A stretch of 61,285 bases of DNA, taken from assembly GCA_020847275.1 (NCBI GenBank), contig JADLCI010000006.1, positions 1-61,285 on the forward strand, given 5' to 3'. Both the position numbers and the translations under genes were made by a program. This stretch comes from Candidatus Nomurabacteria bacterium. GTDB taxonomy: Bacteria; Patescibacteriota; Minisyncoccia; Phycocordibacterales; JACOZG01. The notes under the pieces are model-generated. The model did not search any database. It was not told the DNA's origin and saw only the letters and a program-made list of their open reading frames with translations. Below are positions 4,702 through 20,764 of the stretch, piece by piece (the first letter of the stretch is position 1; each line of letters begins with the position of its first letter).

Positions 4702-5274
4702 ATGATTGGGCAACTGACTGGGCAAGTGTCACACAGGGGCGACCGGTTTGTGATTCTGGAAGTGGCCGGTGTAGGCTACCACGTTAATCTTTCCTCAGAA
4801 ACACTGAAGCGGGTGGAAAAAGAACAAAGCGGTGTTAAATTCTGGACTTATTTAGCGGTTAGGGAAAACGCTTTGGATCTATATGGTTTTCTCGAACGGC
4901 GGGAGTTGGAATTTTTTGAGCTGTTGATTTCCGTCTCAGGAATTGGTCCGAAAAGTGCAATCACCATCCTCTCTCTCGCCCCGCCAGAAACTTTAGAAAA
5001 AGCGATTACCTCCGGCGATGCCGGTTACCTGACGAAGGTTTCTGGGATCGGCAAGAAAAGTGCAGAGAAAATTGTGTTGGAGTTGAAAGATAAGTTGGGC
5101 AGTATCGCGGGTTTAAGCGACTCTGAACTACGCGGTGAAAGCGAGGCAATCGAAGCCCTCCAAGCTCTTGGTTACTCGCTTCGAGAAGCGCGTGAGGCAT
5201 TAAAAAATGTCCCCGACACTATTATTGACACCGGTGAGAAAGTAAAACAAGCCCTGAAAAAATTGGGTAAATAA
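4702..5274 (+). CDS. ruvA: Holliday junction branch migration protein RuvA
   Basis: MIGQLTG start (ATG 4702), GVGYHV, VSGIGPKSA and VSGIGKKSAEKIVLEL HhH motifs. Confidence 0.96.
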   Translation: MIGQLTGQVSHRGDRFVILEVAGVGYHVNLSSETLKRVEKEQSGVKFWTYLAVRENALDLYGFLERRELEFFELLISVSGIGPKSAITILSLAPPETLEKAITSGDAGYLTKVSGIGKKSAEKIVLELKDKLGSIAGLSDSELRGESEAIEALQALGYSLREAREALKNVPDTIIDTGEKVKQALKKLGK

Positions 5275-15908: not shown

Positions 15909-17606
15909 ATGATCACCTTCAGAGACACTGGGGAAACAAAGAAACTGGAAGAACTTCACAGTCACGAAGCAGAGGCGCTCGCAGAAATGCTATCAGGAAA
16001 ATATCAGCTACCGTACATTGACCTATCTAAATTCCCCATCAATACTGATGCCCTGCGTCTAATACCCGAAAGTGAAGCCCGGAAAAGTGCTCTGGCGGCT
16101 TTTAAAATTAACGGTAAGAATATTTTCCTCGTTACAATCTCTCCCGAAAGGATAGAAACAAAAAATACCCTCAGTGAATTACGTGATAAAGGCTACCATC
16201 TCAATCTCTATCTAGCCTCCCAAGCGAGTCTGGATCGCGCTTGGTCCCGCTACAGCGAGATATCTCGCTCAACGCGGACAGAGGCTGGCGTAATCGACAT
16301 TTCAAATGAGGCTATCGCCAACTTCACCAAACAAATCAGCGACATCGATAGTTTGAATCGTTTATTCTCATCTGAGGGCTTATCTGCTCTCGCCGCTGGT
16401 GGTATCTCTAACTTGTTAGAAGTAATTCTTGCCGGTGGCATTGTAACTCTCGCCTCCGATATCCATCTTGAACCGGAGGCCGATCGTGTGCGCTTACGTT
16501 TCCGTTTAGACGGCGTGCTCCACGATATTAGCTTCCTCCCTCAAAAACTTTACGCCCAAATTGTCTCGCGTGTGAAGCTCCTTTCGGGACTGAAACTAAA
16601 TGTCCAGAAATCCGCCCAAGACGGTCGTCTGAGTATCCGGCTCGATGGTACTGATATTGAAATCCGTACTTCAATTTTGCCTGGCGCCTACGGTGAATCA
16701 ATCGTACTACGTTTACTTAATCCAGAAACGATTAATGTCACTTTTGAAACTTTGGGCATTGAGCCAGCCCTGTTTAAAATCGTCGAGAGAGAAATCACTA
16801 AACCAAACGGTATGATCCTCCTAACCGGGCCGACTGGTTCTGGTAAAACAACTACCCTTTACTCCTTCCTTCGAAAAATTTCTACCGGTGAAAACAAAAC
16901 CATTACCATTGAAGATCCGATTGAATATCACCTACCTGGAATCAGCCAAACCCAAGTTAATCCAGATAAAAATTATACTTTCCTAACCGGGCTCCGTAGC
17001 GCCCTTCGTCAAGACCCAGACATCATAATGGTTGGAGAAATCAGAGACAAAGAAACGGCAAAAATTGCCATTAACGCTTCCCTAACTGGACACCTCGTCT
17101 TCTCCACCCTCCACACCAACAATGCGGCTGGCACAATTCCAAGATTGATTGACCTAGATGTGAACCCTAAAATTATTGACTCCGCGCTTAATATCTCAAT
17201 GGCACAACGCCTGGTTCGAAACCTCTGTCCAGCGTGCAAAGAAGAAAGCACTCCCACTCCCACCGAAACGAAGCTACTGCTCGCCGTCCTCGAATCGATT
17301 AAGGAAAAACGGCCAGAAATTCCCCTCCCCACAGCAAACCGGTTGTGGCGAGCAAAGGAAGGTGGCTGTGCCGCGTGCAATCATATTGGTTACAAGGGGC
17401 GACAAGGGGTCTTCGAAGCAATTCTAATTGACGAACGAGTGGCTCCCCTCCTAGTAAGTAATCCGAATGAACGCGAGATAAAAATCGCTGCTCGACCGCA
17501 GGGAATTCTAGATATGCGTCAGGACGGTGTCTTAAAGGTCCTTGCGGGAGCGACCTCATTAGAGGAGCTGGCGCGAGTGGTAGATGTAAATGAAGAAGTT
17601 ATCTAG
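15909..17606 (+). CDS. pilB: PilB/GspE-family pilus assembly ATPase
   Basis: ASDIHLEP, AQDGR, GPTGSGKTTT, TIEDPIEY, LRQDPDIIMVGEIRD, STLHTN, tetracysteine motif. Confidence 0.93.
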   Translation: MITFRDTGETKKLEELHSHEAEALAEMLSGKYQLPYIDLSKFPINTDALRLIPESEARKSALAAFKINGKNIFLVTISPERIETKNTLSELRDKGYHLNLYLASQASLDRAWSRYSEISRSTRTEAGVIDISNEAIANFTKQISDIDSLNRLFSSEGLSALAAGGISNLLEVILAGGIVTLASDIHLEPEADRVRLRFRLDGVLHDISFLPQKLYAQIVSRVKLLSGLKLNVQKSAQDGRLSIRLDGTDIEIRTSILPGAYGESIVLRLLNPETINVTFETLGIEPALFKIVEREITKPNGMILLTGPTGSGKTTTLYSFLRKISTGENKTITIEDPIEYHLPGISQTQVNPDKNYTFLTGLRSALRQDPDIIMVGEIRDKETAKIAINASLTGHLVFSTLHTNNAAGTIPRLIDLDVNPKIIDSALNISMAQRLVRNLCPACKEESTPTPTETKLLLAVLESIKEKRPEIPLPTANRLWRAKEGGCAACNHIGYKGRQGVFEAILIDERVAPLLVSNPNEREIKIAARPQGILDMRQDGVLKVLAGATSLEELARVVDVNEEVI

Positions 17607-17805
17607 TTCACCGACAATCAAGAACATAAACCTCTAAGCAAACCTTCGACGTAAACGCCGAAGTGAGGTAAAACCGAAAGGATAGAGAAAGCAAAACAAC
17701 CGAAGTTATGAAACTGTCTCGTCCTCCTGGAAAAACCCGTTTAAACCCGGAAGAGCTTAGTTGCTTAGAGGTTTATGGTCTGGATTAGTGTCAAACTAAC
17801 GAACC
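17605..17805 (-). ncRNA. ~200-nt structured RNA with 6S RNA-like architecture
   Basis: Perfect 17-bp inverted repeat 17625-41/17761-77 extended by imperfect pairing; terminal stem ATAAC-UUCG-GTTGT; G-U pairs fit only the minus strand; consensus promoter upstream. Confidence 0.6.
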
Positions 17806-17811
17806 ACGGCC

Positions 17812-17840
17812 ATGCTAGCATAAAACAATTTAAATGTCAA
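17812..17840 (-). promoter_or_regulatory. sigma70 promoter; its palindromic -10 (ATGCTAGCAT) also serves ruvB on the + strand
   Basis: On minus: TTGACA(17840-35)-17 nt-TAGCAT(17817-12) with extended TG; the -35 overlaps the ruvB start codon. Confidence 0.75.
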
Positions 17841-18844
17841 TAGGCAAAGAAAACGGTGGACAAGATTGGTTTCTTGATAGCGCTCTCCGACCAAGCACTT
17901 GGAGCGACTATATTGGACAGAAACACATCAAAGATAACCTGCAAATCCTCCTTGCGGCGGCCAAAGAACGCTCCCAACCACCAGAACATCTACTCTTCTA
18001 CGGTCCACCTGGGCTAGGTAAAACCACTCTTGCTCATTTAATCGCTAAAGAAATTGGCGCCCAACTTAAAATCACCTCCGGTCCAGCGATTGAGCGCGTG
18101 GGTGATCTTGCTTCCATCCTCACCAATCTTGCCGCGGGCGACATGCTCTTCATCGACGAAGTACACCGTCTCAACAAGATGATTGAAGAAATTCTTTACC
18201 CGGCAATGGAATCTGGAAAACTAAATATCGTCATCGGTAAGGGGCCGGGAGCGAGAGTCATTCAATTAGACTTACCGCCGTTTACCCTTGTCGCTGCTAC
18301 GACTCGCCCAGCACTGCTCTCGGCACCACTTCGTTCACGTTTCGGTGGGGGCACGTTTCGCCTAGATTTTTATTCCGAAAACGAAATCCGGGATATCATC
18401 AAACGATCGGCCGAGATTCTGGGTATGAAACTAGACGACGAGGCAGCGCTGGAGATTGCTAGACGTTCGCGTTTTACCCCACGAATTGCCAATCAATTCT
18501 TAAAACGTTGCCGCGATCTAGCTCAATTGCGCGGACAATCAATCAGCAAACAGGTCGCCCGTGAAGCCCTAACACTGATGGGAATTGATGAACTAGGATT
18601 ATCGGAAAACGATCGGAAGATTCTGGCCACAATTATCGAAAAATTTAACGGTGGGCCAGTTGGTGTTTCAACTATCGCTACCGCAACGCACGAAGAAGAC
18701 GCGACTATCGAAGAGGTTCACGAACCCTATCTGATTCAACTTGGAATGCTGGAACGAACTCCTCGCGGCCGTCAAGCAACTCGCCACGCCTACGATCATC
18801 TGGGCTTTGACTGGCCAGAAAACAGGCAAGGGAAGCTCTTGTAA
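17834..18844 (+). CDS. ruvB: Holliday junction branch migration helicase RuvB
   Basis: [49 protein letters not shown] motifs. Confidence 0.97.
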
Positions 18845-19754: not shown

Positions 19755-20291
19755 ATGGCTGGCCACAATAAATGGACCCAAATTAAACGGCAAAAGGGTG
19801 CTGAAGACGCTAAAAGGAGCAAACTCTTTGGTGTGTTAAGTAAAAACATTTCCCTAGAATCAAGGAAGGCGGGGGGAGATAAAGACGCGCCAGGATTACG
19901 AGCCGCCATTCTGAAGGCTCGTGCCGCCAATATGCCAAACAACAATATCGAACGAGCAATCAGGGGGGCGACGGAAGACAAAGACAGCCAGTTAACTAAG
20001 GTAATCTACGAAGCCTATGGCCCAGGCGGAGTGGCTTTAATTATTGAGGGCACGACCGACAATAATAACCGCACCGCACAAGAAATCAAACATCTACTCT
20101 CTCTTCACGGAGGTAAGATTGCCATACCGGGATCTGTACTTTGGGCTTTCCAAAAAATTGACGACGAATGGCGAGTGGTAAATCCTAAAAAAGTGGAAAG
20201 AAGTGACCAAGAACAACTGACCGGACTAATCCTTGCACTAGAAAGTGGTCAAGGAATTAAGAAGGTAACAACTAACCTATCTCCTTTATGA
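19755..20291 (+). CDS. yebC: YebC/PmpR-family protein (shortened)
   Basis: MAGHNKWTQIKRQKG, NMPNNNIERAI, YEAYGPGGVA, TDNNNRT motifs. Confidence 0.95.
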   Translation: MAGHNKWTQIKRQKGAEDAKRSKLFGVLSKNISLESRKAGGDKDAPGLRAAILKARAANMPNNNIERAIRGATEDKDSQLTKVIYEAYGPGGVALIIEGTTDNNNRTAQEIKHLLSLHGGKIAIPGSVLWAFQKIDDEWRVVNPKKVERSDQEQLTGLILALESGQGIKKVTTNLSPL

Positions 20292-20764
20292 AAATCCTAG
20301 GAATTGACCCTGGTTACGATCGGCTCGGCATTGCCATTTTAGAAAGAAAAAAATCCGCCAGCGAACTAAGTTTCTCCGACTGCCTCACCACCGACAAAAA
20401 ACTTATTTTTGCAGAAAGGTTATTGGAATTAGGAAATGCCCTGGAAAAAATTATCATTGAATTCCGGCCGGAGCTACTAGCACTAGAAACTCTCTTCTTC
20501 GCCAAGAATAAAAAAACGGCGATGCTTGTGGCCGAAACAAGGGGCTTGATTCTCTATTTAGCCGCGAAACATCATTTACGGGTTTACGAAATATCGCCAG
20601 CCAGTGTGAAACTTACCACCACTGGTTATGGCCGGGCCGACAAAGCGCAAATAATCGCCATGTTACCGAAGCTTCTAAAGATCGACAAAACGATAAAACA
20701 CGATGATGAATTCGACGCCATTGCTATTGCCCTTACAGCTTTATCCACAGTTTCACTTAATTAG
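20288..20764 (+). CDS. ruvC: crossover junction endodeoxyribonuclease RuvC
   Basis: ILGIDPG, ETLFF, GYGRADKAQ, DDEFDAIAIA motifs. Confidence 0.96.
   Translation: MKILGIDPGYDRLGIAILERKKSASELSFSDCLTTDKKLIFAERLLELGNALEKIIIEFRPELLALETLFFAKNKKTAMLVAETRGLILYLAAKHHLRVYEISPASVKLTTTGYGRADKAQIIAMLPKLLKIDKTIKHDDEFDAIAIALTALSTVSLN

Follow-up and report, generated by a model that had tools for sequence, protein, structure and literature searches.

A predicted structured RNA gene between pilB and ruvB, conserved across an order of Parcubacteria

Several kinds of described RNA bear some resemblance to the element considered here. 6S RNA (SsrS; RF00013) is a stand-alone, strongly transcribed molecule of ~150 to 200 nucleotides (nt), widely conserved in its lineages, that ends in a long closing stem and has a long terminal arm; hairpins can flank its middle. 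Lineage-restricted orphan structured RNAs, among them LOOT RNA (RF03000), the raiA motif RNA, and OLE RNA, have multihelix folds backed by covariation, their own transcription signals, no coding potential, and no known partner. Processing stems of the ribosomal RNA (rRNA) type, which are cut by ribonuclease III (RNase III), hold both ends of a molecule in a long, near-perfect duplex whose outer flanks are variable in length. Last, the phi29-type packaging RNA (pRNA) is a junction-based structured RNA of ~120 to 170 nt that works with a ring ATPase. Features of each recur at a locus between a PilB/GspE-type ATPase gene (pilB) and ruvB in a 61,285-nt stretch of DNA from Candidatus Nomurabacteria bacterium (contig JADLCI010000006.1 of assembly GCA_020847275.1; hereafter, the window). 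A first-pass annotation, made from the sequence alone, placed an RNA of ~200 nt there and took it for a divergent ssrS or a new RNA. The second of these alternatives is the one that holds: we are highly confident that the minus strand of this locus carries a real RNA gene of a new family, referred to below as the pilB-ruvB RNA.

The likeness to 6S RNA is in size, strong transcription, and general layout, but the pilB-ruvB RNA has a tight four-way junction in place of an open bubble and a closing helix with hardly any interruption, in contrast to the bulged stems of 6S RNA; RF00013 does not match it, and a separate 6S-type RNA co-occurs with it. It has the general properties of the orphan RNAs listed above but no similarity to them in Rfam 15, a different architecture, and an unusually fixed neighborhood. 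LOOT RNA itself, which is lineage-restricted and of unknown function, is encoded in the source genome (81 bits; C7 ~166040-166156, plus strand; L084:8440-8556). Like the rRNA-type processing stems, the pilB-ruvB RNA encloses both of its ends in a duplex with variable flanks; in contrast to them, it also shows strong conservation in the duplex sequence, more than a stem that served processing alone would need. The parallel with phi29 pRNA, in which a junction-based RNA likewise has a genetic link to a motor ATPase that is hexameric or pentameric, is no more than a lead, a likeness of description in which no similarity of sequence or fold was seen; the pilB-ruvB RNA is chromosomal, and the ATPase linked to it is of the PilB/GspE type. 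By sequence comparison, the pilB-ruvB RNA matches no described RNA family and appears to be a new, near-universal structured RNA of a large order of ultra-small Parcubacteria, the one to which the source genome belongs.

The spacer contains a perfect 17-bp inverted repeat, as first reported: CATAAACCTCTAAGCAA at 17625-17641 has its exact reverse complement, TTGCTTAGAGGTTTATG, at 17761-17777 (plus strand). A repeat finder lengthened this pair to 26 nt with 92% complementarity (17616-17641 with 17761-17786). An alignment of 27 copies from the same family was made, and a family covariance model, R1, was used for the searches described below. RNAalifold predicted 56 base pairs for these 27 members, 37 of them with compensatory changes. 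An order-wide alignment of 60 sequences was then used to assess 44 pairs, of which 39 showed two-sided changes. The paired cells of this alignment amounted to 92.7%, compared to 77.0% in shuffles and 39 to 51% when the partners were slid, and the covariation score was 0.499 (versus 0.200), a value that none of 500 shuffles reached. Conservation and compensatory changes in more than 60 genomes indicate that the element is more than a chance palindrome.

The same alignment assigns the strand. Among paired cells read in the minus-strand sense, G-U combinations outnumbered A-C combinations by 245 to 54, and this excess identifies the minus strand as that of the RNA. The covariance model scored 152.6 bits on the minus strand of the source locus versus 54.2 bits on the plus strand, and the minus strand was ~100 bits above the plus strand in every genome. 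The minus strand of the region 17600-17840 folds at −80.7 kcal/mol (z = −5.6; none of 200 shuffles folds as well) and the plus strand at −59.7 kcal/mol (z = −3.7). The minus-strand fold has a closing stem that reaches out to 17806/17604 and includes GGUUCGU/GGUGAACU, with three hairpins inside. The extended closing stem of ~35 bp described in the first-pass annotation is present in the computed fold, as are the 8-bp hairpin CUUCGGCG-UUUA-CGUCGAAG (17663-17644) and the terminal stem AUAAC-UUCG-GUUGU, which forms the apical tip. Taken with the promoter described below, the G-U asymmetry, the model scores, and the fold bear out the original proposal that the minus strand encodes an RNA, in antisense orientation relative to pilB and ruvB; the model built from relatives likewise supports a conserved structured RNA there.

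The features of the locus, in window coordinates, are as follows.

15909 to 17606, plus strand: pilB, a PilB/GspE-type ATPase gene (T2SSE and MshEN domains by Pfam), convergent with the RNA.
17604 to 17806, minus strand: predicted full transcript of ~200 nt, including outer closing-stem pairs specific to this genome; its 5′ end was placed by means of the promoter and its 3′ end by means of the fold.
17618 to 17784, minus strand: conserved core of the RNA, a full-length match to the covariance model (152.6 bits, E = 9e-44).
17761 to 17784, minus strand: 5′ strand of the closing helix P1, UCCAGACCAUAAACCUCUAAGCAA (repeat finder, alignment, and covariation).
17743 to 17758, minus strand: P2, a short hairpin, AAGCUC-UUCC-GGGUUU (consensus fold and covariation).
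17666 to 17738, minus strand: P3, the long arm (consensus fold and covariation).
17644 to 17663, minus strand: P4, the hairpin CUUCGGCG-UUUA-CGUCGAAG (covariation in nine of nine pairs).
17618 to 17641, minus strand: 3′ strand of P1, UUGCUUAGAGGUUUAUGUUCUUGA (repeat finder, alignment, and covariation).
17812 to 17840, minus strand: promoter of the RNA, with the −35 element TTGACA at 17840-17835, a 17-nt spacer ending in TGC, and the −10 element TAGCAT at 17817-17812 (promoter scan).
17834 to 18844, plus strand: ruvB (confirmed by Pfam), divergent from the RNA, with its ATG at 17834.

The predicted RNA is ~167 to 200 nt long and consists of the closing helix P1, an optional hairpin P2, the long arm P3, and the hairpin P4. 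The inverted repeat is P1, which is laid out as 6 bp, one variable position, and another 17 to 18 bp; 22 of its 24 pairs show compensatory changes, 94.9% of cells are paired, and the block UCUCUAAGC/GCUUAGAGA is close to invariant across the order. P2 covaries as well, with five pair types at each of its 5 pairs. It is missing in six relatives (L048, L059, L103, L107, L111, and L112), and such lineages have a single-stranded 5′ segment of 10 to 18 nt. P3 starts from a GGG/CCU base. Farther along, AGGAC (17721-17725) faces UAUCCU (17679-17684) with a conserved C-versus-UA internal loop, and the arm also contains a CUGG/CUGG-type segment, in which wobble pairs occur in tandem, as well as a variable tip capped by UUCG; G62, G71, C94, and C104-105 are invariant in the alignment of 27 copies. 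P4 is closed by CUUU/AAAG and shows compensatory changes in all nine pairs; it was flagged by the terminator scan, yet it is an internal arm and not a terminator.

The center of the molecule is a compact four-way junction with linkers of 2 to 4 nt. The large open central bubble of 6S RNA is not seen: the region is filled by the covarying hairpins P2 and P4, although the contrast is less sharp in the lineages that lack P2. The model-based alignment, which recovers P1, P2, three segments of P3, and P4, gave no support for pseudoknots or loop-loop pairing. Constancy of sequence is confined to helical and internal-loop elements (UCUCUAAGC/GCUUAGAGA, AGGAC/UAUCCU, and CUGG/CUGG), and loops and helix tips vary freely.

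The pilB-ruvB RNA occupies a single locus in its own genome, and among ~30 genomes of the same family, BLASTN detected it in nearly all, with essentially one copy in each. With R1, it was detected in 178 of 201 genomes sampled across the order, from more than 100 families, nearly always as one gene per genome; ~11% of the order’s genomes had no R1 match. The only clear duplication among the matches listed for the 201 genomes is in relative G080, which has tandem copies at C1:65114-65290 and 65314-65490 (minus strand; 99.7 and 75.8 bits). An exact-motif scan of public genomes showed that at least 120 metagenome-assembled genomes carry the motif of the RNA, under the labels Candidatus Paceibacterota, Parcubacteria, Minisyncoccia, Ca. 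Taylorbacteria, Zambryskibacteria, Adlerbacteria, and Vogelbacteria; among the matches listed, many third-party annotation (TPA) assemblies bear the generic label “Saccharibacteria.”

The neighborhood, too, is near-constant. The downstream gene is a convergent PilB-type ATPase in 60 to 62 of the 63 loci examined and the upstream gene a divergent ruvB in 56 to 57, a synteny that is near-invariant across more than 50 families. In 300 genomes from elsewhere in the phylum, R1 yielded no more than three matches, all weak. These three loci (L098 to L100) are convergent to a PilB-type gene and keep the P3 core AGGAC...CUGG...CUGG...UAUCC; the sequence of their P1 is different, and a U-run follows it. 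Because the outside matches are syntenic and have the P3 core, the family probably extends beyond the order in a diverged form. One further match (19.6 bits), in L150 from another class of Patescibacteria, lies behind a PilB paralog and is an AT-rich perfect hairpin lacking the P3 motif; it was not counted as a homolog. Both L149 and L150 have a ~24-bp perfect AT-rich inverted repeat, convergent to the ATPase gene and directly behind the PilB paralog, which may be a mere terminator or a very reduced relative.

A scan of the minus strand from 17840 to 17812 recovered the promoter just as it was first described: TTGACA-17-TAGCAT with a TG extension, which matches the consensus at 10 of 12 positions and whose −35 element covers the ruvB ATG. 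Near-consensus promoters were present on the RNA strand in 48 of the 60 order-wide loci versus 6 of 60 in the reverse-strand control; TTGACA was perfect in 45 loci, and the TGn extension was found in 49. In 39 of 60 loci, the −35 sequence is TTGACAT, whose opposite strand, ATGTCAA, supplies the Met-Ser start of ruvB. The sequence ATGCTAGCAT (17812-17821) is indeed a perfect palindrome, which presents a TAGCAT hexamer in both directions, 12 nt ahead of the ruvB ATG. Use of the hexamer facing ruvB would yield a nearly leaderless ruvB mRNA that has only ~5 nt ahead of the start codon and lacks a Shine-Dalgarno sequence. An extended −10 motif, TRTGn, is established for promoters of the Gram-positive type, and the apparent bidirectional −10 may merely be this motif read backward. 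Since TRTGn predicts the conserved TATGC before the −10 element, a bidirectional −10 is not demonstrated.

In the source genome no terminator was found 3′ of the RNA, in agreement with the first reading, and the 3′ part of the predicted transcript overlaps the pilB stop codon (17604-17606). Relatives do have terminators: a U-run directly follows P1 in 18 of 60 loci, and a separate hairpin with a T-run is found in 8, giving RNA-strand terminators in 26 of 60. The family thus has its own promoter and terminator on the strand that is backed by covariation and G-U asymmetry, as a stand-alone small RNA gene does. The 5′ leaders range from 5 to 75 nt. Eight relatives (L037, L040, L044, L047, L048, L058, L106, and L115) have a terminator-like hairpin with a U-rich tract on the RNA strand, in a gap of 30 to 60 nt between promoter and P1, which might act as an attenuator, form an additional 5′ domain, or mark a 5′ end made by processing.

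Overall, these results are best explained by a gene for an undescribed, stand-alone structured small RNA that is stable and probably binds protein, a reading that we consider moderately probable as a whole. The comparative evidence suggests that a near-consensus, sigma-70–type promoter with an extended −10 transcribes the RNA from the minus strand and that the product is a closed molecule, its 5′ and 3′ ends locked in an almost mismatch-free P1 of ~17 to 25 bp. P1 would bear a junction with two or three arms (optional P2, P3, and P4), and in many relatives the RNA would end at the U-run right after P1 or at a separate terminator. Such an RNA may be abundant, stable, and resistant to exonucleases and may act in trans within a ribonucleoprotein (RNP), as the RNA component that binds or sequesters a protein, with P1 and the P3 internal loop as putative recognition sites. 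We arrive at a trans-acting RNP RNA from the constancy of the helical and internal-loop parts and the free variation of the loops and tips, and we hold this mechanism tentatively, at somewhat less than an even chance. The ends may be set by cleavage within the closing duplex. The 5′ leaders vary, and some genomes, the source genome included, have no terminator; cleavage of the constant duplex by RNase III is therefore a good candidate for the way in which the ends are formed. An RNase III with a double-stranded RNA–binding domain is encoded at C7:201115-201789 of the source genome. This maturation step is the more doubtful of the two proposals.

Overlapping signals offer the best explanation for why the RNA keeps its place between pilB and ruvB, given that its −35 element lies on the ruvB start codon. 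Such an overlap would tie the RNA gene to ruvB, so that the synteny can be understood without any function in common. A side effect may be that the strong promoter of the RNA limits ruvB transcription.

Several observations weigh against this reading. The RNP mechanism and the RNase III step are drawn solely from the pattern of conserved parts. The synteny might be due not to overlapping signals but to a functional link with pilB or ruvB. The family of the source genome has no visible terminator, and transcripts may run antisense into pilB. The terminator-like hairpins between promoter and P1 in several relatives do not fit a simple model. Last, the source organism was absent from the RNA runs found, and the matches in such runs are a few metatranscriptome contigs of relatives, 151 to 232 nt long, with a depth of 2 and no direction, which cover the promoter too. 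Since these contigs extend into the promoter, they may represent DNA or plus-strand read-through and are not evidence for a small RNA.

The alternative that survives best, which we nevertheless consider unlikely, is a locus-bound regulator for which the act of transcription or antisense pairing is what matters. The promoter would then occlude ruvB, unterminated transcripts would pair with the 3′ end of the pilB mRNA or with read-through from pilB to ruvB, and the fold would serve only stability or termination. The almost invariant synteny across more than 50 families is in line with this idea, as are the identity of the −35 TTGACAT with the Met-Ser codons of ruvB, the −10–like hexamer that the palindrome ATGCTAGCAT directs toward ruvB, and, in the source genome, an outer stem that overlaps the pilB stop codon with no terminator after it. 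Because the −35 element overlaps the ruvB start, ruvB transcription must traverse the promoter of the RNA or begin inside it, and the geometry makes interference, as competition between the two promoters, plausible; the first-pass annotation had proposed such competition. However, four densely covarying helices with conserved internal loops exceed what a terminator or a stabilizing hairpin needs. The RNA ends before pilB in 26 of 60 relatives, so that conservation does not extend to antisense pairing with pilB, and the conserved ATGC before the −10 element is explained by TRTGn with no need for a second promoter. Regulation of this kind is compatible with a stand-alone, protein-binding RNA but cannot account for the elaborate covarying fold.

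A functional synteny would also follow if the pilB-ruvB RNA were a subunit of an RNP machine specific to those Parcubacteria that lack the signal recognition particle (SRP), working with an invariably linked neighbor. By analogy, the RNA might be a cofactor of the solitary PilB/GspE-type ring ATPase, associated with the motor as phage pRNA is, or alternatively of RuvB. We regard this proposal as improbable.

Identity with 6S RNA is a little less probable still. The RNA would then be a divergent 6S RNA, or a second 6S-like RNA comparable to 6S-1 and 6S-2 of Bacillus, that binds the RNA polymerase holoenzyme by mimicry of an open promoter. Its similar size, its layout (a closing stem and a long terminal arm, with hairpins flanking the middle on either side), its strong housekeeping-type promoter, and the lack of Rfam 6S matches above threshold in its class are all consistent with this assignment. 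However, RF00013 gave no match at E ≤ 10, a relaxed threshold, in 17450-17990 and none in the whole genome, and the middle of the molecule is a four-way junction and not an open bubble. Among 301 Patescibacteria genomes, RF00013 detected 6S RNA in 28 (8 above threshold), all in other classes; within the order, it gave five weak matches only. Two of these five have the motif GGGAGyCyU...GCGGrCACCCACCUrG, which is common to the threshold-passing Patescibacteria 6S RNAs. A search of the source genome for this motif led to an intergenic 6S-type RNA outside the window, at C1:59644-59795 on the minus strand (L067:544-689). A closing stem, 5′ bubble, terminal stem, and hairpin in the 3′ bubble can all be recognized in it, along with a terminator of its own, and it carries GGGAGUCUU...GCGGACACCCACCUAG, as do the threshold-passing 6S RNAs of Patescibacteria, although RF00013 missed it.

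A second covariance model, R2, was built from the Patescibacteria 6S set. In the source genome, its sole match was the C1 locus (35.3 bits, E = 1e-4); the pilB-ruvB RNA was not hit. Across the order, R2 gave a single match in each of 78 of 201 genomes, never at an R1 locus, and the matched RNAs fold as canonical 6S rods. Both RNAs were found in 71 of 201 genomes, that is, in 71 of the 78 that have the 6S-type RNA. Positional orthology was no more favorable: none of the canonical 6S genes of other Patescibacteria classes adjoins pilB or ruvB, and the PilB homologs of 16 such genomes have neither an adjoining ruvB nor an AGGAC...UAUCC motif downstream. Because a 6S-type RNA is encoded at a different locus of these genomes, the pilB-ruvB RNA is very probably not 6S RNA, and the 6S part of the first-pass annotation is not supported.

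It is highly improbable that the element acts in cis on the plus strand, as a pilB 3′ untranslated region, a terminator, or a ruvB leader, or as a palindromic site at the DNA level. The element does lie in the plus-strand spacer of a conserved gene pair, where the repeat folds too, as the z score of that strand shows. Against this stand the G-U to A-C ratio of 245 to 54 in the minus-strand sense, the ~100-bit advantage of the minus strand, and the location of the promoter and terminators on the minus strand, with no U-run after the hairpin on the plus strand. A riboswitch or cis-acting leader on the RNA strand was rejected as well: the downstream gene is convergent in 60 to 62 of 63 loci, and the terminators after P1 show no alternative pairing.

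Searches against described families were negative. At the gathering threshold, Rfam 15 found only 12 transfer RNAs (tRNAs) in the window; at E ≤ 10, no family was found in the region, the only hits being chance matches (HtrA thermometer and PsrR1). The scan of the whole genome yielded rRNAs, tRNAs, transfer-messenger RNA (tmRNA), class A RNase P RNA, and LOOT RNA but no 6S or SRP RNA. RNase P RNA and tmRNA are thus found elsewhere in the genome and were rejected as identities of the element. So was a Holliday-junction mimic replacing a lost RuvA, given that RuvA is encoded at 4702-5259 and P2 is dispensable in some lineages. A literature search found no paper on the pilB-ruvB RNA.

SRP RNA models (RF00169 and RF01854) had no match in the genome at E ≤ 1. 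The SRP54-type GTPase domain PF00448 (Ffh/FtsY) is absent from the source genome and, in a six-frame search in which 14 of 14 controls gave a positive result, from 199 of 201 genomes of the order. That Parcubacteria lack ffh and ffs has been reported (Nelson and Stegen 2015, PMC4508563), and the loss of SRP seen here agrees with that report on a much larger sample. The pilB-ruvB RNA was rejected as an SRP RNA because the order lacks Ffh and FtsY; in addition, no model matches it, it has no GNRA-capped helix-8 motif, and the tip of P3 is variable and UUCG-capped. The least probable reading of all, that of a highly diverged SRP (4.5S) RNA or of a mobile repeat such as a miniature inverted-repeat transposable element (MITE), can appeal to the lack of an Rfam SRP RNA and to a long terminal inverted repeat that looks superficially MITE-like, but it fails on the absence of Ffh, FtsY, and helix 8 and on the presence of the element at one locus in its own genome, in one fixed position across the order (60 to 62 of 63 loci), and in no viral contig, in place of the multicopy insertions that the first-pass annotation named as the mark of a MITE.

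The source genome is 537 kb in size, and the organism originates from wastewater or sludge metagenomes. Its ruv genes are split in the window: ruvA (4702-5259, plus strand) lies 12.5 kb from ruvB, and yebC and ruvC come after ruvB (19755-20288 and 20288-20761).

Genomes of Parcubacteria and other members of the candidate phyla radiation measure ~0.5 to 1 Mb. Reduced genomes that have shed even SRP keep this RNA of ~165 nt in about nine-tenths of the order, in one fixed place and under a near-consensus promoter. An RNA so stubbornly kept in reduced genomes likely does something central. Its fold, strand, promoter, and ends are all predicted, which makes it a well-defined target for RNA biology. 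The 6S-type RNA, presumably the true 6S RNA of the order, which the standard Rfam threshold misses, is now separated from the pilB-ruvB RNA and can be annotated. If the partner of the pilB-ruvB RNA were the neighboring ATPase or RuvB, the two would constitute a new kind of RNA-protein machine.

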